A stretch of 32,000 nucleotides of DNA from Robiginitomaculum sp. (GCA_965224735.1 OZ245059.1:2361-34360); one strand, 5' to 3'; positions 8,814 to 25,667 are shown, numbered from the stretch's first letter. A program made the numbers and translations. The notes: a model not told the origin generated them from the sequence alone.

Positions 8814-9716
8814 TAGTCCGACAGTGTGCTGGTGTTGTGTATAGTGATCTGTCAACCAAGGAGGTTTTATGGGACAAGTATTACACGAAAGCGCCAAGAC
8901 GACGTACATTACGAGAGCAGGGCTACAGCGATCGCAAGCTTCAACCCAAGCATTAGCCTTGCAATACGGGTTGAATGTGAAAACGATTGCGAAATGGCGC
9001 AAACGCGATTTCACGCATGATGTCGCGATGGGGCCAAAGAAACGATCTTCGAGAATGTTGAGCTGTAAGTGTTGAGCATTGAAGAGGAAGCTATGTGTGT
9101 GGCGTTTCGCCAGCATACATTACTGCCTCTTGATGATTGTCTGTATGCTTTGCAAGAGACGCTTCCTCATCCCTCCAGATCCGCTCTACACCGCTGTTAT
9201 CAGCGCCACGGTATAAGCCGTCTCCCCAACCCGAAAAATGACAAACCTGCAAAGAAGGTGTTCAAGACATATCCAATAGGGTATTTTCATGTTGATATTG
9301 CCAAAGTGCGCACAGAGGAAGGGAAACTCTACATGTTTGTTGGCATAGAGCGGACATCGAAATATGCATATGTTGAATTGCACGCGCGGCAAACGAAAAT
9401 GGTTGCTGCAGCATTTTTACGTAAGCTAATCACAACCGTGCCTTATAAAATCCACACCCTTCTTACTGATAACGGGATACAGTTCACCAATCGCAAACAA
9501 GATAAATATGCTGGCATACATATCTTTGATCATGTGTGTCACGAACATGACATCCAGCACCGCCTGACGAAAACCCAGCACCCTTGGACGAATGGACAGG
9601 TGGAACGCATGAACCGTACCCTCAAAGGCCTCACGCCTTACGAATATATTTGCAAAATATCTACAAAGGAGCCACAACGGTTTAACGTAAACCCATACCA
9701 GCACACTGTGGGACTA
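8814..9716 (+). mobile_element. Degenerate IS481-family insertion sequence
   Basis: Terminal inverted repeats TAGTCCGACAGTGTGCTGG (8814-8832) and CCAGCACACTGTGGGACTA (9699-9716), 18/19 complementary, enclose the transposase reading frames. Confidence 0.75.
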
Positions 9717-9746
9717 GGGTCAGGACTCATTAAAGCCAATATATAA
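8869..9746 (+). pseudogene. IS481-family DDE transposase, split by a frameshift with a probable internal deletion
   Basis: The HTH part (8869-9075, ...LALQYGLNVKTIAKWRKR) and the integrase-core part (9069-9746, ...LLTDNGIQFTN...HPWTNGQVERMNRTLK) are in different frames. ERMNRTLK joins directly to GLTPYEYICK, where family members normally carry ~30 more residues. Confidence 0.75.
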
Positions 9747-10173
9747 CGATTGCAGCGATACATATTGTTGAGAAAAAGGTGTGTGCGCACCTATCATAGC
9801 GTGTTGAGACACGTCTCCAGTCTTTGATCCTACCAAACATGTTTTGGGCCTTGTGCCGCTGTTTGTACAAAACCTTATCATATGGGATATGCTTTTTTCG
9901 ATTTCGGCGCGGGGGAATACACGGGGTGATATTGTGCGCGTATAATGCCTCCAAGAGCGCAACACGAAACCAATTTGAATCATAGCCTTTGTCGCCTAAA
10001 AGATGTTGCGCTCTTGGGAGTTGGTCAAGCAATAAACGTGTCCCCTTTATGGCCGCTCATTTGTCCCTCACTGAGCACCATGACAACAGGCCGCCCCGCG
10101 CCATCACAAACCGCATGGAGTTTTGAGTTCAACCCGCCTTTGGTGCGTCTAATACATCGGGGAACATCCCTTT

Positions 10174-10201
10174 TTTAAGCAGACTGGTTTAAGCAGACTG
10201 G
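10174..10201. repeat. 14-bp perfect tandem duplication in the IS5 transposase pseudogene
   Basis: TTTAAGCAGACTGG x2; the 14-bp length shifts the reading frame. Confidence 0.9.
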
Positions 10202-10301
10202 CTGCGGTTCTGTGGGCTTTGAGGTGGGTGGCATCAATTTGCAATTGTTCTGGCACACCATCAAATGTGCTGGGCGCGATAAATATTTTGTTGAATACGC
10301 T

Positions 10302-10325
10302 CATTTTACTCCCCATTTTACTCCA
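10302..10325. repeat. 12-bp tandem duplication in the IS5 transposase pseudogene
   Basis: CATTTTACTCCC / CATTTTACTCCA. Confidence 0.85.
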
Positions 10326-10398
10326 GCGTATAAATCGATTATAAAGTGTTTTATGAGGTCCATATTCTCGGGGAGCATCACGCCATTGGAGGCCTCGC

Positions 10399-10443
10399 TT
10401 GAGTACATGGATTTTGAGCGCATGGATCTTGAGCACATGGATA
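10399..10443. repeat. 15-bp imperfect tandem repeat x3 in the IS5 transposase pseudogene
   Basis: TTGAGTACATGGATT / TTGAGCGCATGGATC / TTGAGCACATGGATA. Confidence 0.85.
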
Positions 10444-10696
10444 ATGCCACTAATGACAGGCAAATCATCTACGCGCGGAACCCCGTGGGGTAAGGAAATA
10501 AGGCTTAATACGTGCCAGCTGGGACTTTGATAGATAAAACAAATCACTCATGATGAAAACTCCTTTGAATGCCAATCAATCACAAATCAAGCAAAATGGG
10601 AATCCCTAAAATTAATAGGTCCTGACCCTAAATAGAGTAAATAGGCTTTGTAAGCCTATTTACAAATGCCAACAATACGAATAGTTTGCAAAAATA

Positions 10697-12445
10697 ATGG
10701 GTAGGGTTATGATTATTAGGTTTTCTGGGATGTCTAAATTGATACGAACCGTATTGGCAGGGGTCGTTTTATGCGCTTGCGTCTTTGCGCAATCGATTGT
10801 CTATGCGCAAGCAAAGCGAGAGGGTCAAGCGGTACAAACGCAGCAACAACCTGAAGTGCAAAAGTTACAAGAAGCACGAGCGCCTCAAAAAACGGAAAAA
10901 GACACGGCAGTTGTTAGCACAACAAATATATCAATATATCAAGCTGCTCTTGAAGCGCGCCGGGCCGCGGATGAGGCGATTAATGAAGCGCTTCAGTCTG
11001 GCGATAGCGAAGCGCTCGACACTGCTTATACTTTGCGAAAATCTGCCGATAAAGCATTGGCGGACGCGGCAGTAAAAAAAGATTTACATTTAGAAACCGC
11101 TCTTAAGAGCGGCGAGGTGACGAAAATATCTCAGAAAAAGAAAAGTCTAATATCAACAAATCCAGACGATATTAAGGCAATGTTGCAAAGTATATTAAAC
11201 AAGGTAATCGGATGGTTAACCAGCGTTGCATTTTTGGCAATGATTGGTGCTATTGTTCTGGCCTATTTTTTAGCTCCGATCCTAACAAAGATATTAGAAA
11301 AACGCATCCCTCTTTTGCAAACCGCTCCCAAAAAGGATGTTAAGCTACGCATTGTTCGTCATTATTTATATGAAGCTCGCGAGCTGTTAAGGCCGATATT
11401 ACTGGTGGGGTTGTTGGCGCTTGGCGCTTTTGTTCTTAAAAATATTTCGATCTTTGGACAGGATTGGCTTGTAAAGTTAGCGCAGGGCTTAGCCGTGGTT
11501 TTCCTTCTTTTTAAAGCGATAAAGCAGTTTTTTAAAAACCCGCTTTTGCAAAAAATAACCATCTGGATTGCTATCCCGCTCGCACTCTTTATGGTGTTTG
11601 GGTATTATGATGATTTACTAAAGATCCTTAACACAACAACGATTATGAAAATGGGTACCACTCCCATCACTCTCATGACGTTTGTGCGGCTTGGTATTTT
11701 TAGTGGTTTGTTTTTCTGGCTAGGCGGGATATCAAATTCCAGAGGGCAAACGGCTATTCGCTCGCAAGAAACTTTGGATGTAGCCACGCGCGAAATTGCG
11801 GCGAAAATGTTTCAAATCCTGTTGTTTGTGATTTTGTTTGTGCTCATTCTAAGCTTCGCAGGTATTCCACTTTCTGGTCTTGTCATGATTTTCAGTGCTG
11901 TTGGCCTTGGCATCGGGTTTGGCCTTCAACCCATTGCTGCCAATTTTATTTCAGGGCTTATCATCTTATTTGACCGCTCGGTTAAGGCTGGAGATTATGT
12001 AGTGCTACCTGATGGCCAAGAGGGATATGTTGAGGCGATTAATATGCGCTCGACGATTGTTGAGACGACGGACGGTAAAGACATCATGGTTCCCAATGTT
12101 AAATTTATTGATGAGGCTTATGAGAACTGGACGCACAAAGATCCGCGTCAGCGCTATGAAGTTTATTTCAGCGTTTCTTTTAACACGGACATCGAAAAGC
12201 TTGAGGCGATTTTGATACCCGAAATATCAAAACACCCAAAAGTTTTACAAGAGCCGGAAAAGCCAGATTTGGAGCTTAGAGAATTTGGCGAATCTTGTAT
12301 AAATTTTGCTATAGAGTTTTGGTGTAGCGGCATTGATGACGGGGAGAATAAATTTACTTCAGATTTAAATTTTACGATTTGGCGCACCTTAAAGAAACAT
12401 GGTATTGCTATGCCGTTGCCACAACGCGAAATAAAAATGTTGTAA
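10697..12445 (+). CDS. MscS-family mechanosensitive channel (large, with periplasmic N-terminal extension)
   Basis: Signal or TM start, multiple TM helices, then the MscS core: GLGIGFGLQPIAANFISGLIILFDRSVKAGDYV...GYVEAINMRSTIVETTDGKDIMVPN. Alternative starts at 10709 and 10730. Confidence 0.85.
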   Translation: MGRVMIIRFSGMSKLIRTVLAGVVLCACVFAQSIVYAQAKREGQAVQTQQQPEVQKLQEARAPQKTEKDTAVVSTTNISIYQAALEARRAADEAINEALQSGDSEALDTAYTLRKSADKALADAAVKKDLHLETALKSGEVTKISQKKKSLISTNPDDIKAMLQSILNKVIGWLTSVAFLAMIGAIVLAYFLAPILTKILEKRIPLLQTAPKKDVKLRIVRHYLYEARELLRPILLVGLLALGAFVLKNISIFGQDWLVKLAQGLAVVFLLFKAIKQFFKNPLLQKITIWIAIPLALFMVFGYYDDLLKILNTTTIMKMGTTPITLMTFVRLGIFSGLFFWLGGISNSRGQTAIRSQETLDVATREIAAKMFQILLFVILFVLILSFAGIPLSGLVMIFSAVGLGIGFGLQPIAANFISGLIILFDRSVKAGDYVVLPDGQEGYVEAINMRSTIVETTDGKDIMVPNVKFIDEAYENWTHKDPRQRYEVYFSVSFNTDIEKLEAILIPEISKHPKVLQEPEKPDLELREFGESCINFAIEFWCSGIDDGENKFTSDLNFTIWRTLKKHGIAMPLPQREIKML

Positions 12446-17738: not shown

Positions 17739-18129
17739 CCCATGCCATCAAATGTCATAATGATAGAATAGGGTTGCTTTTGGTAAAAAGAATGCATTGT
17801 TGCGGGGAGCCACCAATCACCAATGCCGTCCGTAGCGGTTAGAATAACGGATCCTGACAAAGAATGTTCAAGGGTTGCAGAACTGCGGGTGATGGCATCT
17901 GCTGCTGCTGCTTCCATGCGCTTGATATGGCCGAGCACCAAATAGCCAAATTTAGTCGGGGTGAGGCGACCGTCTTCTTTGGTTAGCAGTGGCGTGCTAA
18001 AATTCTGCTCAAGGGTTTTCTACGCCTGCCGACTGTTGGCTGGCTGATATTCAACCTTTGGCCCGCGCCCGTAAGGCTACCTGTCTCTGCCACAGCAAGA
18101 AAGATAGGGTAATTCGACCAGTTTTTCAT
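17693..18129 (-). pseudogene. LysR-family regulator remnant (frameshifted, 3'-truncated)
   Basis: Reverse-strand ATG at 18129: MKNWSNYPIFLAVAETGSLTGAGQRLNISQPTVGRR. After a frame change near 18022-18030 it continues KTLEQNFSTPLLTKEDGRLTPTKFGYLVLGHIKRMEAAA...VILTATDGIGDWWLPATM. Only ~145 of the ~300 aa expected remain, and the remnant ends against yciI. Confidence 0.7.
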
Positions 18130-18228
18130 ACAAATATGCATATAACAGAGCGGTTAAGAGTCAATATAATTCCTTTTTGAATATTTCTCGTGGCTTCCAG
18201 AGCACATTTATTGGTTGTAAATTATATG

Positions 18229-18257
18229 TTGAATAAACCTTAATAATGTGTTATAAT
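18229..18257 (+). promoter_or_regulatory. Candidate sigma70-type promoter upstream of rhs
   Basis: TTGAAT (18229-18234), a 17-bp spacer, then TGtTATAAT (extended -10, 18249-18257). The predicted start site would fall within or next to the RBS GAGGGA (18261-18266), leaving a very short leader. Confidence 0.3.
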
Positions 18258-18274
18258 TTAGAGGGACGAATATT

Positions 18275-21200
18275 ATGTATCTGAGGAAATCATTTTTAGC
18301 AGGGCTTGTTATAAATTCTTTCTCTGTTGCTTCGACCGCATTTTCAGCTACACCGCCAATAATACAAATTTCAGGGCAAAGAACAACCACCTATGAAAAT
18401 ACTTATGAAACGATAGCACCGTCATCAACAATAACTATGGAAGATAATTCAGGGCATTCCCAGCCACGCACATGGCATTATGAGTTTGTTGGTGATTTTC
18501 AAATAGTTTCTGTGAACGGGCCAAGAGACGATGTGTTTAATAACACCAAAGTTGAGAGATTTGATGATGGGAAGGTTGAGGTTATAACCAATCCACTTGG
18601 CCATCAAAACCGGTTTAAGTATGATAACACCCGAAATTTAATTTCACATACAGACGCCAACGGCGTCATAGATACATTTTCATATGATGGAAAGCTTCTG
18701 GTTGCTTATACCTATGCCGCAGGTTCCGCTCTTTCAGGCACAACAAGGTTGGCATATAACGCTGATGGCAAAATAACTCAGATTAATTTACCCCAGGATC
18801 AAGTTATTAGAGACACTCTTGATGATGAGGGGAATTACACCGATAGAGCCTATACAATCATTGCTCAGATATTCCAAAAAACCAGCTCACAAGGTTTAAA
18901 CAGGCTTTTCAAAAGGAAGGTGGGAGATGGTGGTCGAAACTTACCGCGTGAATTAACCCCATCACACGCAGCGAGTTCTCAAGAAGTAGATAGTCAGGGA
19001 AGATTAATTAAAAGTTATGATTTTTTGGGCGGCATTACAGAATACCGCTATAATGAGTTCGGAAATTTATCAGAAATGAAGCCGGCAGGAGGGGCGGTCA
19101 CACGATTTGAGTATAATGGATTTAATGAGATAGTTCGCAAAAAAAGTACCGATCGGGGTGTAACAACATTTGAGTATGACCAAGCGGGAAACAAAACCAA
19201 GGAAGTTCGTGCAGGGGGTTTCATCATAAAGAGAAAGTATGATGCTTTAAACCGATTGACGAGAAAAGTGTTCAAGCAAAACGGAGTGGATAAAAAAGTT
19301 ACCCGATATGTCTATGATAAGTGTAAAAATGGGATTGGCCGTGTTTGCAAAATTTCGGATTTCAGTGGGGTCACTAAGTTTCGTTATAATCTATTAGGGC
19401 ATTATAAGGCGGTGTCTGTAAAATATGCTGGTGAGGCTAATTTTAACACGGTCCGGTATTTTTATGGCGATGCTGGGCGTCTTGATAAGGTGCGTTATCC
19501 AACAGGGCTAATTGTTAGATACAGGTATTCAGATGCTGGATTTGTTAAAAAAATTACGGGCAGGTACGATACTGGTGAGGATAGGCAAAGGTTTGTTATA
19601 GCCAAAAACATTGAATTTGATCCTTTGTCAGGACAATTAACAAAATTTGTTTATGGCAACGCAATCAAGACAAGGGTTAAGCTTAATAAGGAAGCTGATA
19701 TATCAAAATTGATTGTTCGTAAGGACGGGGTAGTTATGGATAGATCAACTTACAACTATGATAAAAACGGCAATATAACCCACATTAATCGCCTTGACCC
19801 TGAACAAAGCCAAAACTTTTCTTATGATGCTCTTGGCAGATTAGTGGGTGAACAGCGCGGTATAAACAGCCAACAATCAACGTCTGTGTCCTATAGTTAT
19901 GATGCGAGGGGAAATCGTATTCGCAAAACTGATCTGAAAAAAACCAAAACCTATACTTACTCACCAAAAACAAACAGATTAACCCAAATCAACAAACAGG
20001 CTTTGCTCTATGACGCAAGGGGTAATTTGCTTGAGGACCGAGGTGGTAAGCGTGCTTTTTCATACGATGTGACGGGCCGTATGACGGGGTATTATAAGCG
20101 CGGAAAGCTAAAGGCCCGTTATAGCTATAATGCTTTGGGTCAACGCGTTTCAAAAACCATTCACCGCCCTGCAAAGAAAAATGACACCTATAAAAGTCTT
20201 CATTTTTCATACACCCCACGCGGAAAGCTTTTATCTGAATTTGGCCAAAACAGCCGTAATGCACGAACATTTACCAGGGAATATGTCTGGCTTGGCAACA
20301 AGCCTTTAGCGCAAATTGAAAGAACCATTAATAAGAAAGGCAAAACCAAAAAAACCAACATATATTATCTGCATTCAGACCATCTCAATACCCCTCGCTC
20401 TGCTAGCAATCAAAATGGAGAAATTGTTTGGCAATGGAATAGTGATGCTTTTGGCGTAGGAAAAGCCAACCGTGATGTCAATAATAACGGTAAGAAAGTT
20501 GCCATACGTCTACGTTTTCCTGGTCAATATTATGACGTAGAAAGCGGCCTGTCATACAATCACCACCGGGATTATGATCCAAAGATCGGCCGCTATATTC
20601 AACCTGATCCCATTGGGCTGGGCGGCGATGTAAATCCTTATGCCTATGTGGGTAGTAACCCTTTGAGTTACAGTGACCCTAATGGACTAAAGACATGCAC
20701 AGGCAGTAGAATTCAACGCTCAGACAGTTACAACTGCGGCGGTATGAGTAACGTTGAGTGTTTTGGCAATTGCAGCGGTTTTGGTGGACTAGCAAGAACA
20801 ACGAGGGGTTTTTGTGACGAGGGTGGCTGTACCGTAGAGGGCACGAGAAGTACGAATACTCCTGGGCATACATATTTAACATCAAATGTCGTATGCCGCA
20901 ATGCAGGCCTGGTATCCAATGCACAGCAAAAAAACCTTATGGCATGGTTTACCGTACCAAAGTTTTTTCCTTATATTGTCGACGTGCGAACTGGCACAGC
21001 AGAGACAGAGTACTTTGTATCCCATCCTGATACTGGGGTGCCAGGGGGTTTTGTAACCTCAGAATTAACACCTGATGGACTGTCGGGCACAAATGAAACT
21101 GTTCTAGGCAAGCATATATTCCAAGGGACGGTAACCCGTACATTGACAACAGTGAATGGGCAGCTTGTAATTGCTACATTCGGGACTGGAACATCAGATT

Positions 21201-21304
21201 CTGAAACGATGGATGCCTTGAACACTTGGTTAGGGCCTGGTATATTTAATGCATTAGACAAACACGCCGCCGACCGTCTAAGACGAACTTTTTCAGGATG
21301 TTAA
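18275..21304 (+). CDS. RHS/YD-repeat polymorphic toxin with Sec-type signal peptide and unassigned Cys-rich C-terminal domain
   Basis: YD repeats run throughout (FKYDNTRNLISHTDANG, FSYDALGRLV, YSYDARGNRI, LLYDARGNLL, FSYDVTGRMT, YSYNALGQRV). RHS core: YYLHSDHLNTPRSASNQNGEIVWQWNSDAFG...RFPGQYYDVESGLSYNHHRDYDPKIGRYIQPDPIGLGG. PxxxxDPxGL motif PLSYSDPNGL has its DPNGL at nt 20675-20689. The N-terminus MYLRKSFLAGLVINSFSVASTAFSA is signal-peptide-like. Confidence 0.9.
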   Translation: MYLRKSFLAGLVINSFSVASTAFSATPPIIQISGQRTTTYENTYETIAPSSTITMEDNSGHSQPRTWHYEFVGDFQIVSVNGPRDDVFNNTKVERFDDGKVEVITNPLGHQNRFKYDNTRNLISHTDANGVIDTFSYDGKLLVAYTYAAGSALSGTTRLAYNADGKITQINLPQDQVIRDTLDDEGNYTDRAYTIIAQIFQKTSSQGLNRLFKRKVGDGGRNLPRELTPSHAASSQEVDSQGRLIKSYDFLGGITEYRYNEFGNLSEMKPAGGAVTRFEYNGFNEIVRKKSTDRGVTTFEYDQAGNKTKEVRAGGFIIKRKYDALNRLTRKVFKQNGVDKKVTRYVYDKCKNGIGRVCKISDFSGVTKFRYNLLGHYKAVSVKYAGEANFNTVRYFYGDAGRLDKVRYPTGLIVRYRYSDAGFVKKITGRYDTGEDRQRFVIAKNIEFDPLSGQLTKFVYGNAIKTRVKLNKEADISKLIVRKDGVVMDRSTYNYDKNGNITHINRLDPEQSQNFSYDALGRLVGEQRGINSQQSTSVSYSYDARGNRIRKTDLKKTKTYTYSPKTNRLTQINKQALLYDARGNLLEDRGGKRAFSYDVTGRMTGYYKRGKLKARYSYNALGQRVSKTIHRPAKKNDTYKSLHFSYTPRGKLLSEFGQNSRNARTFTREYVWLGNKPLAQIERTINKKGKTKKTNIYYLHSDHLNTPRSASNQNGEIVWQWNSDAFGVGKANRDVNNNGKKVAIRLRFPGQYYDVESGLSYNHHRDYDPKIGRYIQPDPIGLGGDVNPYAYVGSNPLSYSDPNGLKTCTGSRIQRSDSYNCGGMSNVECFGNCSGFGGLARTTRGFCDEGGCTVEGTRSTNTPGHTYLTSNVVCRNAGLVSNAQQKNLMAWFTVPKFFPYIVDVRTGTAETEYFVSHPDTGVPGGFVTSELTPDGLSGTNETVLGKHIFQGTVTRTLTTVNGQLVIATFGTGTSDSETMDALNTWLGPGIFNALDKHAADRLRRTFSGC
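20074..20816 (+). repeat. 743-bp direct repeat, copy A (inside main rhs)
   Basis: Line-by-line comparison with 22384-23126 (offset 2310) shows no mismatch. The first differences are at 20817-20818 versus 23127-23128. Confidence 0.9.
20690..21301 (+). other. C-terminal (post-DPNGL) putative toxin domain of the main RHS, 204 aa, no recognised family
   Basis: It lies after the autoproteolysis-type motif. It has 8 Cys, 6 of them in the first ~47 aa, and the final residue is Cys. Two further variant copies lie downstream. Confidence 0.6.
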
Positions 21305-21305
21305 T

Positions 21306-21782
21306 ATGATGAAAACTAAAATAATTTCTATACAGTATTTGATATTTATTTTACCTGTTATGCTTTTGGCTGGTTGTGGTTATGGCACGGCTCTTAAGTA
21401 TAAACTCGAAGCGCCTGTCAACTATAGGTTAAAAATAACTGCCGATACTTCGCAACAAGCGGAACTTGATCTTAGACAGGCATTTATGCAGGAAAACTTA
21501 CAACTTGTTCGATATCGCCCCTACGATGATATAGATAGAAGTTATTATATATTTCACAGCAGTAGCAATATACATGTCAAATTACTTAATAGTCGGGGCC
21601 ATAAAAGTGCCATTGTTGCAATATATCCCGCCCGGCTCGCCTCTGTTTCATCCAAACTAAGAGCGCAATTGGAACAACGCGAAGAGGCACTCCTGCGTAT
21701 AGAGAAACAGCTAAAACAAACCGATAGTTTCTCCAAATATATACCCTCAGAGTGGGAAAGGGAATACAATATTTATAAGTGA
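21306..21782 (+). CDS. Putative immunity lipoprotein I1 (cognate to main CT)
   Basis: The ATG lies 1 nt after the toxin stop (TGT TAA T ATG), with AGGA 8 nt upstream. Lipobox LLAGC. It is a member of a 5-copy paralog family in this locus. Confidence 0.7.
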   Translation: MMKTKIISIQYLIFILPVMLLAGCGYGTALKYKLEAPVNYRLKITADTSQQAELDLRQAFMQENLQLVRYRPYDDIDRSYYIFHSSSNIHVKLLNSRGHKSAIVAIYPARLASVSSKLRAQLEQREEALLRIEKQLKQTDSFSKYIPSEWEREYNIYK

Positions 21783-21797
21783 AAATTGGTGAGGGCC
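21779..21797 (+). repeat. Cassette junction motif J1
   Basis: GTGAAAATTGGTgAGGGCC, spanning the immunity stop codon and the start of the next cassette. Confidence 0.85.
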
Positions 21798-21864
21798 TGG
21801 CATATTTAATGCATTAGACAAACACGCCGCAGACCGTCTAAGACGAGTTTTCTCAGGATGTTAA
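21793..21864 (+). pseudogene. Toxin-tail stub R1 (last 23 codons plus stop of an rhs CT)
   Basis: GPGIFNALDKHAADRLRRVFSGC* is homologous to 21233-21304. An in-frame TGA precedes it, and there is no start codon. Confidence 0.85.
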
Positions 21865-21865
21865 T

Positions 21866-22363
21866 ATGATAAAAACAATTGTCCGCCTAAAATATTTGGT
21901 CTTTATGTTACCGTTCGCGCTTATGGCTGGATGCGGTTATGATACAGCACTTAAGTACAAAACCAAAGGATCTACCAGCTATAGGTTAAAAATAACTGCC
22001 GAGACCCCGCAACAAGCGGAACTTGATCTTAGACAGGCATTTCTGCAGGAAAACTTACAACTTGTTCGCCATCACCTCTACAATGATATAGATAGAAGTT
22101 ATGCTATCTTTCACAGCAGTAGCTATATATATGTCAAATTACGTAATAGTGAAGGTTTTAGAAGAGCCATTGTTGCAATATATCCCGCCCGGCTCGCCTC
22201 TGTTTCATCCAAACGAAGAGCGCAATTGGAACAACGCGAAGAGGCACTTCTGCGTATAGAGAAACAGCTGAAACAAACCGATAGTTTCTCCAAATATATA
22301 CCCTCAGAATGGGAAAGAGACTACATGCACACCCTCAGAACGGGAAAGCCGCCGCTACAATAA
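21866..22363 (+). CDS. Putative immunity lipoprotein I2 (no full-length toxin partner)
   Basis: Lipobox LMAGC. Paralog of I1. The C-terminus is altered by a 31-bp imperfect duplication (…WERDYMHTLRTGKPPLQ*). Confidence 0.65.
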   Translation: MIKTIVRLKYLVFMLPFALMAGCGYDTALKYKTKGSTSYRLKITAETPQQAELDLRQAFLQENLQLVRHHLYNDIDRSYAIFHSSSYIYVKLRNSEGFRRAIVAIYPARLASVSSKRRAQLEQREEALLRIEKQLKQTDSFSKYIPSEWERDYMHTLRTGKPPLQ

Positions 22364-22369
22364 GTATAA

Positions 22370-22388
22370 GTGAAAATTGGTTAGGGCC
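22370..22388 (+). repeat. Cassette junction motif J2
   Basis: GTGAAAATTGGTTAGGGCC, joined to rhs sequence at GGGCC|GTATGACGGGG. Confidence 0.85.
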
Positions 22389-23126
22389 GTATGACGGGGT
22401 ATTATAAGCGCGGAAAGCTAAAGGCCCGTTATAGCTATAATGCTTTGGGTCAACGCGTTTCAAAAACCATTCACCGCCCTGCAAAGAAAAATGACACCTA
22501 TAAAAGTCTTCATTTTTCATACACCCCACGCGGAAAGCTTTTATCTGAATTTGGCCAAAACAGCCGTAATGCACGAACATTTACCAGGGAATATGTCTGG
22601 CTTGGCAACAAGCCTTTAGCGCAAATTGAAAGAACCATTAATAAGAAAGGCAAAACCAAAAAAACCAACATATATTATCTGCATTCAGACCATCTCAATA
22701 CCCCTCGCTCTGCTAGCAATCAAAATGGAGAAATTGTTTGGCAATGGAATAGTGATGCTTTTGGCGTAGGAAAAGCCAACCGTGATGTCAATAATAACGG
22801 TAAGAAAGTTGCCATACGTCTACGTTTTCCTGGTCAATATTATGACGTAGAAAGCGGCCTGTCATACAATCACCACCGGGATTATGATCCAAAGATCGGC
22901 CGCTATATTCAACCTGATCCCATTGGGCTGGGCGGCGATGTAAATCCTTATGCCTATGTGGGTAGTAACCCTTTGAGTTACAGTGACCCTAATGGACTAA
23001 AGACATGCACAGGCAGTAGAATTCAACGCTCAGACAGTTACAACTGCGGCGGTATGAGTAACGTTGAGTGTTTTGGCAATTGCAGCGGTTTTGGTGGACT
23101 AGCAAGAACAACGAGGGGTTTTTGTG
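22384..23126 (+). repeat. 743-bp direct repeat, copy B (5' part of orphan 1)
   Basis: Identical to 20074-20816. Confidence 0.9.
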
Positions 23127-23629
23127 GTGAGGGTGGCTGTACCGTAGAGGGCACGAGACAACGTACGCCTCCTTCTGCTCCTGGACATATATATTCAACA
23201 TCAAATGTCGTATGCCGCAATGCAGGCCTGGTATCCAATGCACAGCAAAAAAACCTTATGGCATGGTTTACCGTACCAAAGTTTTTTCCTTATATTGTGG
23301 ACGTGCGAACTGGCACAGCTGGTGAAACAAGATATTTTGTAACGCACCCTGATACAGGCGTCCCAGGTGGTTATGTAACTTCAGAACTTTTTTCTGGCGG
23401 GCTGACAGGAAGAAATACAACTGTTGATAATTTGCATTTTTTTGCTGGCACTATCACACGTACACTGACAACAGTGAATGGGCAGCTTGTAATTTCTACG
23501 CTCGGTGTTGGAACATCAGATTTTGTGACGATAGATGCCATAAATAGTTTATTAGGCCCAGGTGTCTTTAATGCACTAGATCGGCATGCTGCCGACCGTC
23601 TAAGAAGGGCTTTCCCCGGATGCCAATAA
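22391..23629 (+). CDS. Orphan rhs C-terminal cassette 1 (last YD repeats, RHS core and a variant CT)
   Basis: 412-aa ORF that starts at an internal Met of the rhs frame (MTGYYKRGKLKARYSYNALGQRV...). It includes DPNGL (22985-22999) and a CT that diverges from the main CT mainly in its last ~100 aa. There is no N-terminal signal or shell. Confidence 0.85.
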   Translation: MTGYYKRGKLKARYSYNALGQRVSKTIHRPAKKNDTYKSLHFSYTPRGKLLSEFGQNSRNARTFTREYVWLGNKPLAQIERTINKKGKTKKTNIYYLHSDHLNTPRSASNQNGEIVWQWNSDAFGVGKANRDVNNNGKKVAIRLRFPGQYYDVESGLSYNHHRDYDPKIGRYIQPDPIGLGGDVNPYAYVGSNPLSYSDPNGLKTCTGSRIQRSDSYNCGGMSNVECFGNCSGFGGLARTTRGFCGEGGCTVEGTRQRTPPSAPGHIYSTSNVVCRNAGLVSNAQQKNLMAWFTVPKFFPYIVDVRTGTAGETRYFVTHPDTGVPGGYVTSELFSGGLTGRNTTVDNLHFFAGTITRTLTTVNGQLVISTLGVGTSDFVTIDAINSLLGPGVFNALDRHAADRLRRAFPGCQ

Positions 23630-24090
23630 TAAATAAAATGCTTGCTCTACGGAACTTTGCCTTCATGCTAACCTTTGTGTGTATTTCTGGATGCGGGTAT
23701 GATGTGGTCTTACAGTACAAAGCGAAAGCATCTGTAGGGTATAGATTGACAATCACCTCAGATACACCTCAACAGGCATCATCCTTTGTTAAACAAACAT
23801 TTTTGTCGGAAGACTTGGAACCCGTCCATCATATTGAATTTGATACAGTCGAAAGGTCTTATATCTATCACAATAGTAGTATGATAATGATCACATTAAA
23901 TCTCGATTTTAAAACAGCAAATATTGCAATATATCCTGCCCGGCTTAACTCTGTTTCATCCAAGCGAAGAGCACAATTGAAACAACGTGAAGAAGCAATA
24001 TTACGTATAAAGCAAGTGCTGGAGAAGTCCGATAGTTTCACCAAATATATACCCTCAGAGTGGGAAAGAGAATACAATATTTATAAGTGA
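23620..24090 (+). CDS. Putative immunity lipoprotein I3 (cognate to orphan 1; most divergent paralog)
   Basis: Lipobox CISGC. Conserved family blocks IYPARLNSVSSKRRAQLKQREEAILRI and DSFTKYIPSEWEREY. An alternative start at 23638 (MLALRNF...) would avoid overlapping the toxin stop. Confidence 0.7.
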   Translation: MPIINKMLALRNFAFMLTFVCISGCGYDVVLQYKAKASVGYRLTITSDTPQQASSFVKQTFLSEDLEPVHHIEFDTVERSYIYHNSSMIMITLNLDFKTANIAIYPARLNSVSSKRRAQLKQREEAILRIKQVLEKSDSFTKYIPSEWEREYNIYK

Positions 24091-24105
24091 AAATTGGTTA
24101 GGGCC
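24087..24105 (+). repeat. Cassette junction motif J3
   Basis: GTGAAAATTGGTTAGGGCC, joined to rhs sequence at GGCCTGGTAT|CCAATGC. Confidence 0.85.
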
Positions 24106-24503
24106 TGGTATCCAATGCACAGCAAAAAAACCTTATGGCATGGTTTACCGTACCAAAGTTTTTTCCTTATATTGTCGACGTGCGAACTGGCAGACAAGGT
24201 TTTACAGAGTACTTTGTATCCCATCCTGATACTGGGGTGCCAGGGGGGTTTGTAACCTCAGAATTAACGCTTGATGGACTGTCGGGCATAAATAAAACTG
24301 TTCCAGGCCGGCATATATTCGCAGGGGAGGTAACCCGTACACTGACAACAGTGAATGGGCAGCTTGTAATTGCTACATTCGGGACTGGAACATCAGATTC
24401 TGAAACAATGGATGTCTTGAACACTTGGTTAGGGCCTGGTATATTTAATGCATTAGACAAACACGCCGCCGACCGCCTAAAACGAGTTTTTTCAGGATGT
24501 TAA
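24102..24503 (+). pseudogene. Orphan rhs CT fragment 2 (last ~130 codons only; ORF from the ATG at 24135)
   Basis: Homologous to 20906-21304 of the main gene: (GLVSNAQQKNL)MAWFTVPKFFPYIVDVRTG...FSGC*. It has no RHS core or DPxGL, and a TAG lies just upstream in frame. Confidence 0.8.
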
Positions 24504-24504
24504 T

Positions 24505-24978
24505 ATGATAAAAAACTATATAACTCAATCGCGGTATTGTACCCTTATTGTGGCCTTCTTTCTGGTAGGATGCGGTTATGATACAATACTTAGGTACAAA
24601 AACGAAGTGCCTGTCAACTATAGGTTAAAAATAACTGCCGATACCCCGCAACAAGCGGAATTTGATCTTAGGCAGGCATTTCTGCAGGAAAACTTACAAC
24701 TCGTTCGCAATCACCTCTACAATGATATAGATAGAAGTTATTCTATCTTTCACAGCAGTAGCCATATATATGTTCAATTACGTAATAGTGAAGGTTTTAG
24801 AAGGCTTCTTGTTGGGGTATATCCTGCCCGGCTCACCTCTGTTTCATCCAAACTAAGAGCGCAATTGAAACAACGCGAAGAGGCAGTCCTGCGTATAGAA
24901 GAAAAACTAAAACAAACCGATAGTTTCACCAAATATATACCCTCAGAGTGGGAAAGAGAATACAATAAGTATAAGTGA
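24505..24978 (+). CDS. Putative immunity lipoprotein I4 (I1-type)
   Basis: Same TGT TAA T ATG coupling as I1. Lipobox FLVGC. Family blocks are conserved. Confidence 0.7.
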   Translation: MIKNYITQSRYCTLIVAFFLVGCGYDTILRYKNEVPVNYRLKITADTPQQAEFDLRQAFLQENLQLVRNHLYNDIDRSYSIFHSSSHIYVQLRNSEGFRRLLVGVYPARLTSVSSKLRAQLKQREEAVLRIEEKLKQTDSFTKYIPSEWEREYNKYK

Positions 24979-24993
24979 AAATTGGTTAGGGCC
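24975..24993 (+). repeat. Cassette junction motif J4
   Basis: GTGAAAATTGGTTAGGGCC, followed by TGGTATATTTAATGC (toxin tail). Confidence 0.85.
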
Positions 24994-25060
24994 TGGTATA
25001 TTTAATGCATTAGACAAACACGCTGCTGACCGTCTAAGACGAGTTTTCTCAGGATGTTAA
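24989..25060 (+). pseudogene. Toxin-tail stub R2
   Basis: GPGIFNALDKHAADRLRRVFSGC*, 72 nt, homologous to 21233-21304. Confidence 0.85.
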
Positions 25061-25061
25061 T

Positions 25062-25559
25062 ATGATAAAAACAATTGTCCGCCTAAAATATTTGGTCTTT
25101 ATTTTACCTGTTATGCTTTTGACTGGATGCGGTTATGATACAGCACTTAAGTACAAAACCAAAGGATCTACCAGCTATAGGTTAAAAATAACTGCCGATA
25201 CCCCGCAACAAGCGGAATTTGATCTTAGGCAGGCATTTCTGCAGGAAAACTTACAACTCGTTCGCCATCACCTCTACGATGATATAGATAGAAGTTATGC
25301 TATCTTTCACAGCAGTAGCTATATATATGTTCAATTACTTAATAGTGAAGGTTTTAGAAGTGCCATTGTTGCAATATACCCTGCCCGGCTCGCCTCTGTT
25401 TCATCCAAACTAAGAGCGCAATTGGAACAACGCGAAGAGGCACTCCTGCGTATAGAGAAACAGCTAAAACAAACCGATAGTTTCTCCAAATATATACCCT
25501 CAGAGTGGGAAAGAGACTACATGCACACCCTCAGAACGGGAAAGCCGCCGCTACAATAA
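25062..25559 (+). CDS. Putative immunity lipoprotein I5 (I2-type, mosaic)
   Basis: Lipobox LLTGC. It has the same derived C-terminus as I2. The signal-peptide segment ILPVMLL matches I1 rather than I2. Confidence 0.65.
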   Translation: MIKTIVRLKYLVFILPVMLLTGCGYDTALKYKTKGSTSYRLKITADTPQQAEFDLRQAFLQENLQLVRHHLYDDIDRSYAIFHSSSYIYVQLLNSEGFRSAIVAIYPARLASVSSKLRAQLEQREEALLRIEKQLKQTDSFSKYIPSEWERDYMHTLRTGKPPLQ

Positions 25560-25565
25560 GTATAA

Positions 25566-25584
25566 GTGAAAATTGGTTAGGGCC
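25566..25584 (+). repeat. Cassette junction motif J5
   Basis: GTGAAAATTGGTTAGGGCC, followed by TGGTATATTTGATGC (toxin tail). Confidence 0.85.
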
Positions 25585-25667
25585 TGGTATATTTGATGCA
25601 TTAGACAAACACGCCGCAGACCGTCTAAGACGAGTTTTCTCAGGATGTTAATATGATGAAAAATTAG
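25580..25667 (+). pseudogene. Toxin-tail stub R3 plus truncated I1-type immunity start (array end)
   Basis: GPGIFDALDKHAADRLRRVFSGC* is followed by ATG ATG AAA AAT TAG. I1 begins ATGATGAAAACT, and homology is lost at ~25663. Confidence 0.8.

Follow-up and report, generated by a model that had tools for sequence, protein, structure and literature searches.

A 32-kb window of the genome of Robiginitomaculum sp., an alphaproteobacterium, was analysed; all coordinates given below are positions in this window, and the listed features of the locus are on the + strand. The window carries a typical Rhs locus, in which a full-length main rhs gene is followed by an array of orphan toxin tips and immunity genes. 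The element under study was a perfect 743-bp direct repeat shared by the main gene and the first orphan. It was concluded that the observed repeat was real and that its design had already been well described for Rhs loci. Switching of the toxin tip at this locus is plausible and has precedent. The unusual aspects are found beside the repeat and not in it, namely a Sec-type Rhs, an undescribed predicted toxin/immunity pair and junctions with microhomology.

The Rhs locus and its 743-bp direct repeat

The locus was composed of the following features, where the tips are predicted toxins and the stubs, identified by aligning all inter-cassette junctions, are remnants of a tip 3' end.

18275-21304, +, main rhs gene: 1009 amino acids (aa), with a YD-repeat shell, an RHS-associated core and a 204-aa type-A C-terminal toxin tip
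20074-20816, +, repeat copy 1 (R): 743 bp, the last part of the conserved core and the first ~42 codons of the tip
20817-20877, +, variable linker a of the main tip: 61 bp, delimited by pairwise alignment and an exact-block scan
20878-20979, +, second exact homology block S: 102 bp, identical to 23197-23298 in orphan 1
21306-21782, +, I1, predicted immunity lipoprotein: lipobox LLAGC, found as an open reading frame (ORF) and by its translation
21783-21865, +, stub between I1 and I2: ~83 bp, remnant of the last ~80 nt of the tip (…WLGPGIFNALDKHAADRLRR.FSGC, then stop), repeat family D4
21866-22363, +, I2, predicted immunity lipoprotein: 93% aa identical to I5
22364-22388, +, junction of the post-immunity stub and the core fragment: …GTGAAAATTGGTTA/GGGCC/GTATGACG
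22384-23629, +, orphan 1: repeat copy 2 (22384-23126) and a type-B toxin tip
23127-23196, +, linker b: 70 bp, the orphan-1 counterpart of linker a
23638-24090, +, I3, predicted immunity lipoprotein cognate to orphan 1: start ambiguous (23620 or 23638), lipobox ISGC
24102-24503, +, orphan 2: 5'-truncated type-A' tip
24505-24978, +, I4, predicted immunity lipoprotein: paralogue of the members of the I1/I2 pair
24979-25061, +, stub between I4 and I5: tip 3' remnant
25062-25559, +, I5, predicted immunity lipoprotein: forms with I4 a second immunity pair, paralogous to I1/I2
25560-25663, +, terminal stub: tip 3' remnant with the initial ~12 nt of an immunity gene; the array ends here on the right

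A direct comparison of positions 20074-20816 and 22384-23126 showed 743 identical bp with 0 mismatches at an offset of 2310, and the match was not extendable by one base on either side, which confirmed the base-for-base repeat reported from the sequence-only reading. The repeat spans the last YD repeats, the RHS-associated core (the TIGR03696 match, which ends at residue 805 with DPNGL) and ~42 codons past DPNGL, in agreement with the content assigned to it earlier. Both copies share the codon phase. When a crossover was made in silico by joining 18275-20816 to 23127-23629, a 1014-aa ORF with a single terminal stop was obtained, followed by I3. The earlier claims that such a crossover would delete 2310 bp, would fuse orphan 1 in frame and would leave I3 directly downstream were therefore upheld in both arithmetic and geometry.

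The identity of the two copies was not due to chance, because the other duplicated segments of the array were all 75-96% identical, as the earlier remark about their many substitutions had implied, and even at 96% identity the probability of zero differences in 743 bp would be ~7e-14. The synonymous divergence (dS) was 0 across 247 codons of the repeat and ~1.0 in the variable part of the adjoining tip. This difference ruled out an origin of the repeat by simple tandem duplication and subsequent uniform divergence. Since a dS of 0 adjoins a dS of ~1, the core copies have to be young or homogenised, and the tips are old alleles that were shuffled in. Judging from these values, core and tip are evolutionarily decoupled, because the core fragment is identical to that of the main gene while the tips represent old alleles.

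The main Rhs protein contained eight RHS-repeat stretches (Pfam PF05593, E 1e-36; TIGR01643, E 8e-29) and an RHS-associated core that was matched by NCBIfam TIGR03696 (Rhs_assc_core) at residues 738-805 and by Pfam PF03527 at residues 696-727. The DPNGL motif corresponded to residues 801-805 (nt 20675-20689; …NPLSYSDPNGL/KTCTG…), so the protein has the PxxxxDPxGL-type core end and the variable C-terminal domain by which Rhs proteins are recognised. The first 25 residues (18275-18349) are, by hydropathy and sequence, a probable Sec-type signal (MYLRKSFLAGLVINSFSVASTAFS/A). Neither PAAR, VgrG nor DUF1795/chaperone domains were found in the main Rhs protein or in the 32-kb window, and no type VI secretion system (T6SS) gene was present in the window; the protein thus lacks the features of T6SS-delivered Rhs proteins. 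Both orphans were located downstream of the full-length rhs and had the composition of orphan modules, orphan 1 being accompanied by I3 and orphan 2 by I4/I5.

Toxin tips, immunity proteins and junctions

The sequences 3' of the repeat had been described as divergent, which was correct only in part. The identity does end at 20816, but further on the main gene and orphan 1 showed 2 mismatches, 30 identical bp, an indel-rich 61/70-bp stretch and then the 102-bp exact block S. One mismatch and 20 further identical bases followed this block before the identity fell to ~70%. The main gene and orphan 2 matched exactly over 20906-20996 (24102-24192 in orphan 2), and the main gene, orphan 1 and orphan 2 were all identical over 20906-20979. 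Tip A of the main gene and tip B of orphan 1 shared 83% aa identity overall and 72% in the variable part, and tip A' of orphan 2 was 89% identical to tip A. By this measure, tips A and B are alleles of one putative toxin family. The claim that recombination would switch the toxin/immunity pair consequently held in its geometry, but not in the sense of unrelated toxins: because the tips are 83% identical, a switch would be between variants of one family. As a side observation, block S lies inside the toxin domain and is flanked by sequence with a dS of ~1; it could act as a second conversion or crossover tract for sub-domain swaps.

Tip B retained all 20 conserved positions of the toxin domain family. 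The ratio of non-synonymous to synonymous divergence (dN/dS) was 0.2-0.3 for tip A against tip B (0.2-0.27 for orphan 1 against the main tip) and for I1 against I3. The kept positions and the low ratios indicate that orphan 1 is an intact, selectively maintained allele, with tip B and I3 apparently under purifying selection. Orphan 2 had lost the first ~83 residues of the toxin domain, including H60 and C69, and the dN/dS of tip A against tip A' was ~0.96; this orphan looks like a decaying fragment.

The putative toxin domain was located at 20690-21301 in the main gene, at 23000-23626 in orphan 1 and at 24135-24500 in orphan 2. The 204-aa tip had no match in Pfam, NCBIfam or PDB sequences. Three relatives were returned by a word-indexed search, and 157 representatives at E<1e-3 by an exhaustive one. 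Ten of the matches were scanned against Pfam: RHS repeats were present in six, one of which had SpvB and TcdB domains in addition, one was a TPS-domain protein and three had no Pfam match; the tip match was C-terminal in 10/10. The tip thus behaves as a modular polymorphic-toxin domain of predicted toxicity, whose relatives are carried by several scaffolds (Rhs, TcB/TcC-like and TPS/CdiA-like). The conserved residues were H60, C69, N135, H142, R150, N178 and C204, with C69/C204 as a Cys pair. An AlphaFold model based on a 41-sequence alignment was confident for residues 55-204, and the best PDB matches found for it by Foldseek were SRPBCC/START/Bet v 1-type helix-grip proteins with modest TM-scores. 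The helix-grip fold suggested by the model is to be taken as a lead, not as an assignment.

All five immunity candidates had lipoprotein signal peptides (xxGC/GY), and the rhs stop codon and the I1 start codon were 1 nt apart. The aa identity was 70% between I4 and I1 and ~55% between I3 and I1/I2. The I1 family gave no Pfam or NCBIfam match, and apart from its paralogues I1 had only two homologues, both metagenomic proteins. Beyond this genome the family was represented only by P0285 and by the gene after a toxin homologue on the unrelated metagenome contig L011, where a 64%-identical toxin tip was followed by an immunity homologue with a lipobox. Because all five immunity proteins have lipoboxes and the toxin has the conserved Cys pair, action of the toxin in the periplasm is suggested.

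Orphan 1 has no signal peptide and no rhs directly upstream, and an internal ATG at 22391 opens a 412-aa ORF. It could therefore be argued that orphan 1 is expressed alone from this ATG, 7 nt into the repeat, as an intracellular module resembling a toxin-antitoxin system; a published precedent for internal expression of a Salmonella orphan Rhs is reported in PMC7043789. We consider this very improbable. The product would be without a signal peptide, and as the lipoprotein immunities and the Cys pair C69/C204 point to the periplasm, toxin and immunity protein would be placed in different compartments. In addition, no promoter-like site scoring 10/12 was found between I2 and 22391, and in the main gene this ATG is an internal codon.

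Every immunity gene was followed by a common sequence (…TAAGTGAAAATTGGTTAGGGCCTGGTAT…), which from TTGG on corresponds to the 3' end of the toxin tip (…WLGPGIF…); the immunity genes form a 557-bp tandem unit made of the tip 3' end and an immunity gene. The conserved post-immunity stub, GTGAAAATTGGTTAGGGCCTGGTAT, was the join site of both orphan 5' ends. At the I2/orphan-1 junction the stub ends after TTGGTTA and the core GGGCCGTATGACG follows, with a 5-bp microhomology, GGGCC (22384-22388), that is common to the stub consensus (TTGGTTAGGGCCTGGTAT) and to the core at 20074-20078. At the I3/orphan-2 junction (24083-24111), the microhomology to this post-immunity stub is 10 bp long, GGCCTGGTAT. 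The two microhomologies suggest that both orphan 5' junctions are illegitimate joins at a recurrent site.

Such junctions give some support to a different view of the array, as a fossil record and an immunity store in which I3, I4 and I5 are kept against the toxins of relatives and the core repeat is incidental and rarely or never used. It would account for the joining of all orphan 5' ends to the same stub via 5-10-bp microhomologies, for the truncation of orphan 2 within the toxin domain at a dN/dS of ~0.96 against the main tip, for the ratio of immunity genes to toxin tips of 5:3 with a further partial immunity cassette elsewhere, and for the fact that a real recombinant was not seen. However, 743 bp with a dS of 0 beside tips with a dS of ~1 require recent recombination or conversion in the core, the tip of orphan 1 is fully intact and in frame, and the analogous locus of Salmonella has been shown by experiment to switch. 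We regard the fossil and store view as possible but doubtful.

Assemblies of the same population and the surroundings of the locus

An exact look-up of the main Rhs protein gave no match, but in the cluster table it was identical to P0123 on a 2,632,739-bp contig. Among the short-read contigs of the same population, L005 (Logan, k = 31) ended 30 bp into the repeat and L004 (GCA_036478535.1, k = 127) ended 127 bp into it. L010 (ERZ25083849, NODE_163806, k = 55) ran from I1/I2 to 55 bp into the repeat and thereby carried the I2-to-repeat junction, and L009 linked the repeat to the main tip. Because three short-read assemblies break at the left edge of the repeat, it has two different left contexts in independent data.

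The possibility that the repeat was an assembly artefact, raised in the sequence-only reading, was accordingly not borne out. Consensus polishing with multi-mapping reads can yield perfect identity over 743 bp, and the repeat could in that case be a false duplication in the 2.63-Mb assembly or a pair of slightly different copies whose differences were erased by polishing. This is hardly credible, since the graphs at k = 31, 55 and 127 all branch at the left boundary of the repeat, one contig contains the I2-to-R junction, another links R to the main tip, and the right-hand contexts of the two copies differ. A few hidden single-nucleotide differences between the copies are possible, but the interpretation would be unaffected by them.

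A single contig without the 2310-bp loop was found, L003/L006 (ERZ25083849 NODE_1305), with a length of 26.5 kb and a coverage of 254. No difference between L003 and the window was observed over 10.4 kb upstream and 6.8 kb downstream. Its Rhs of 1011 aa was in frame and consisted of the main gene, the repeat, the main-specific 61 bp and then orphan 1 from inside the 102-bp block. When compared with the loop-deleted window, L003 showed 21 differing alignment columns, all within 23127-23196, where the main-tip version was present. In principle, such a contig, equal to the loop-deleted window except for these columns and encoding an intact chimeric Rhs, could represent a genuine recombinant subpopulation with a crossover in block S, but we judge this improbable. 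All 55-mers of L003 occur in the unrearranged window, which makes the contig a legal path through the parental graph; linkers a and b form a simple bubble; the 102 bp of block S exceed k = 55; and the assembly that contains L003 also contains the loop, as L010 with the I2-to-R junction, at 304x vs 254x. For these reasons L003 is best read as a shortcut of the assembler in the de Bruijn graph and not as a recombinant.

The coverage ratio of L010 (304) to L003 (254) was 1.20, where 1.24 is expected if all genomes keep the loop and ~0.4 if none does, and this places the loop in roughly 0.9-1.0 of the genomes. The noise of the coverage was large, as L012 reached 1.39x vs ~1.04x expected relative to L003, and a recombinant minority of ~10% or less may be compatible with it. 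Since short-read assemblers can emit the very 'recombinant' contig that is sought, draft assemblies cannot test switching at such Rhs loci.

The differences of L009 and L010 from the window were also considered as strain variation, which was rejected because they cluster where the paralogues I2, I5 and P0128 differ. L010 had no 55-mer absent from the window and L012 taken together, and the differences are probably due to graph paths that switch between paralogues. A further partial cassette was noticed on L012 (ERZ25083849 NODE_31424) at 196-744 and on L007 at 10606-11055, and the cluster table places it on the 2.63-Mb contig as well, outside the window. It comprises the 3' part of an immunity gene, a stub and an I5-like ORF truncated to 83 aa (P0128), and is 94-96% identical to the copies in the window. 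On L007 this cassette adjoined the right flank of the window, possibly through a chimeric join.

For relatives of the Rhs protein, a scan of genome contigs gave only 23-30% identical matches and a scan of metagenome contigs gave none. A search with the orphan 1 protein returned matches of <=65% identity, confined to the core half.

The locus is flanked by housekeeping genes, with hemY-like, tsaD, gpsA and yciI genes before it and, after it, genes of a low-molecular-weight phosphatase, a response regulator, a GMC oxidoreductase and gshB. Two sigma-70-like sites, each scoring 10/12, were found just upstream of rhs at 18142-18170 and 18229-18257, and one weak terminator-like hairpin was found within the array; both are hints at the consensus level only. 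The sites fall in a 536-bp non-coding stretch (17739-18274) between yciI and rhs, whose small minus-strand ORFs had no family match. Farther to the left, an rve-integrase ORF and a DUF4096 transposase fragment were located at 9069-9746 and 10149-10547. Positions 9662/9714 are where short-read contigs of this population begin or diverge, and L004 has ligA directly left of 9714; the window therefore carries an insertion-sequence-associated insertion or rearrangement at this place.

Proposed tip switching and comparison with known systems

We proposed, as the likely explanation of the locus, that one full-length exported Rhs with tip A is followed by displaced tips and immunity genes, and that the core fragment of orphan 1 is a substrate for recombination. 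Orphan 1 has kept 743 bp of the conserved rhs core, and this piece is the repeat. Either recombination within the core has recently given the main gene its present tip, or gene conversion keeps both core copies alike. The copies offer direct, in-frame homology (743 bp, 100%) that is long enough for RecA recombination. Recombination of the RecA type between them would delete the 2310-bp loop with the rest of tip A, I1, the stub and I2, and tip B and I3 would come under the rhs promoter and signal peptide. The anatomy, the reading frame, the intactness of tip B and the presence of both repeat contexts in independent assemblies are shown; that recombination takes place at the locus, and that the competitive specificity would change with it, is inferred. 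The mechanism has been demonstrated experimentally in Salmonella, at a repeat of 522 bp with 95% identity (PMC3967940), and comparative data (PMC2935791) also offer a precedent.

Several points weigh against this proposal. Orphan 1 has a microhomology at its 5' junction, which speaks for an illegitimate join and not for a clean homologous insertion. The earlier wording that the repeat is 'positioned for' switching implies design and does not sit well with a 5-bp microhomology typical of such a join; the repeat may simply be left over from array growth. No bona fide recombinant was found, as the sole loop-less contig was made of window 55-mers only. The suggested comparison with sister strains gave nothing in favour either, as no strain with an alternative tip was present in the genome and metagenome collections searched. 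Finally, the deletion would remove I1 and I2, and this could lead to counter-selection unless I4/I5 cross-protect. I4 and I5 would be left in place by the deletion and may preserve the immunity to tip A.

A more far-reaching version of the proposal is rather unlikely and is offered tentatively. It assumes a T6SS-independent system made of a short Sec-exported Rhs, an undescribed periplasmic helix-grip toxin (with conserved His/His/Asn/Arg and a Cys pair) and a new family of lipoprotein immunity proteins, in which I4/I5 would allow a switch from A to B by one deletion, without sensitivity to unswitched siblings and without the prior duplication needed in Salmonella.

If switching occurs, a clonal marine population could spawn sublineages with the other toxin allele, with consequences for kin discrimination and intraspecific competition, as in Salmonella. 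The toxin and immunity families predicted here are described by no curated library (Pfam, NCBIfam). With this case, the main/orphan design is also seen in a Hyphomonadaceae-type genome and in an Rhs that has a Sec signal in place of the T6SS adaptor.

A close counterpart is the rhs locus of Salmonella Typhimurium LT2, where recombination between main and orphan genes at a 522-bp, 95% repeat switches the toxin (Koskiniemi et al. 2014, PMC3967940). In both loci a full-length rhs and its immunity gene are followed by a direct, in-frame orphan core fragment with a tip and an immunity gene. In LT2, a recombination event within the common core sequence attaches the orphan tip to the main gene, with loss of the main tip and its immunity gene. 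A second copy of the locus was still present in the recombinants, and it was therefore argued that duplication precedes recombination, so that the main immunity is kept (PMC3967940). In contrast to LT2, the repeat described here is longer and perfect (743 bp, 100%, vs 522 bp, 95%), the tips appear to be alleles of one family and not different toxins, two orphans and five immunity genes are present, and the Rhs has a predicted Sec-type signal and no T6SS adaptor. Moreover, recombination was observed in LT2, whereas it is proposed for the present locus.

The enterobacterial rhs displacement arrays (Jackson et al. 2009, PMC2935791) are similar in that dissociated tips lie downstream of an intact rhs, with core fragments of variable length that are identical to the resident core. 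The authors reported that 'core regions were always identical' when attached tips were compared with dissociated ones and put forward a model with a circular intermediate. The pattern expected from this model was also found here, as the core fragment of the dissociated tip was identical to the resident core while the tips were divergent. Core and tips are evolutionarily decoupled in those arrays too, and excision and insertion by homologous recombination were modelled there. The present array differs in its alphaproteobacterial host, in the short rhs (1009 aa) and in the tandem amplification of the immunity genes as a 557-bp unit. Unlike in the Jackson model, the orphan 5' junctions show microhomology with the conserved post-immunity stub.

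At the level of architecture only, the locus also resembles the orphan cdiA-CT/cdiI and rhs-CT/rhsI modules, described in general terms by Poole et al. 2011 (PMC3150448), and the mafB-CT cassettes of Neisseria (PMC4287609), which are silent alternative C-terminal cassettes with immunity genes. Like the Rhs described here, MafB has a signal peptide and not a T6SS adaptor (PMC4287609). The delivery scaffolds differ from that of this Rhs, being TPS for CdiA and a DUF1020 N-terminal domain for MafB, and one distant relative of the predicted toxin domain is found on a TPS-domain protein.

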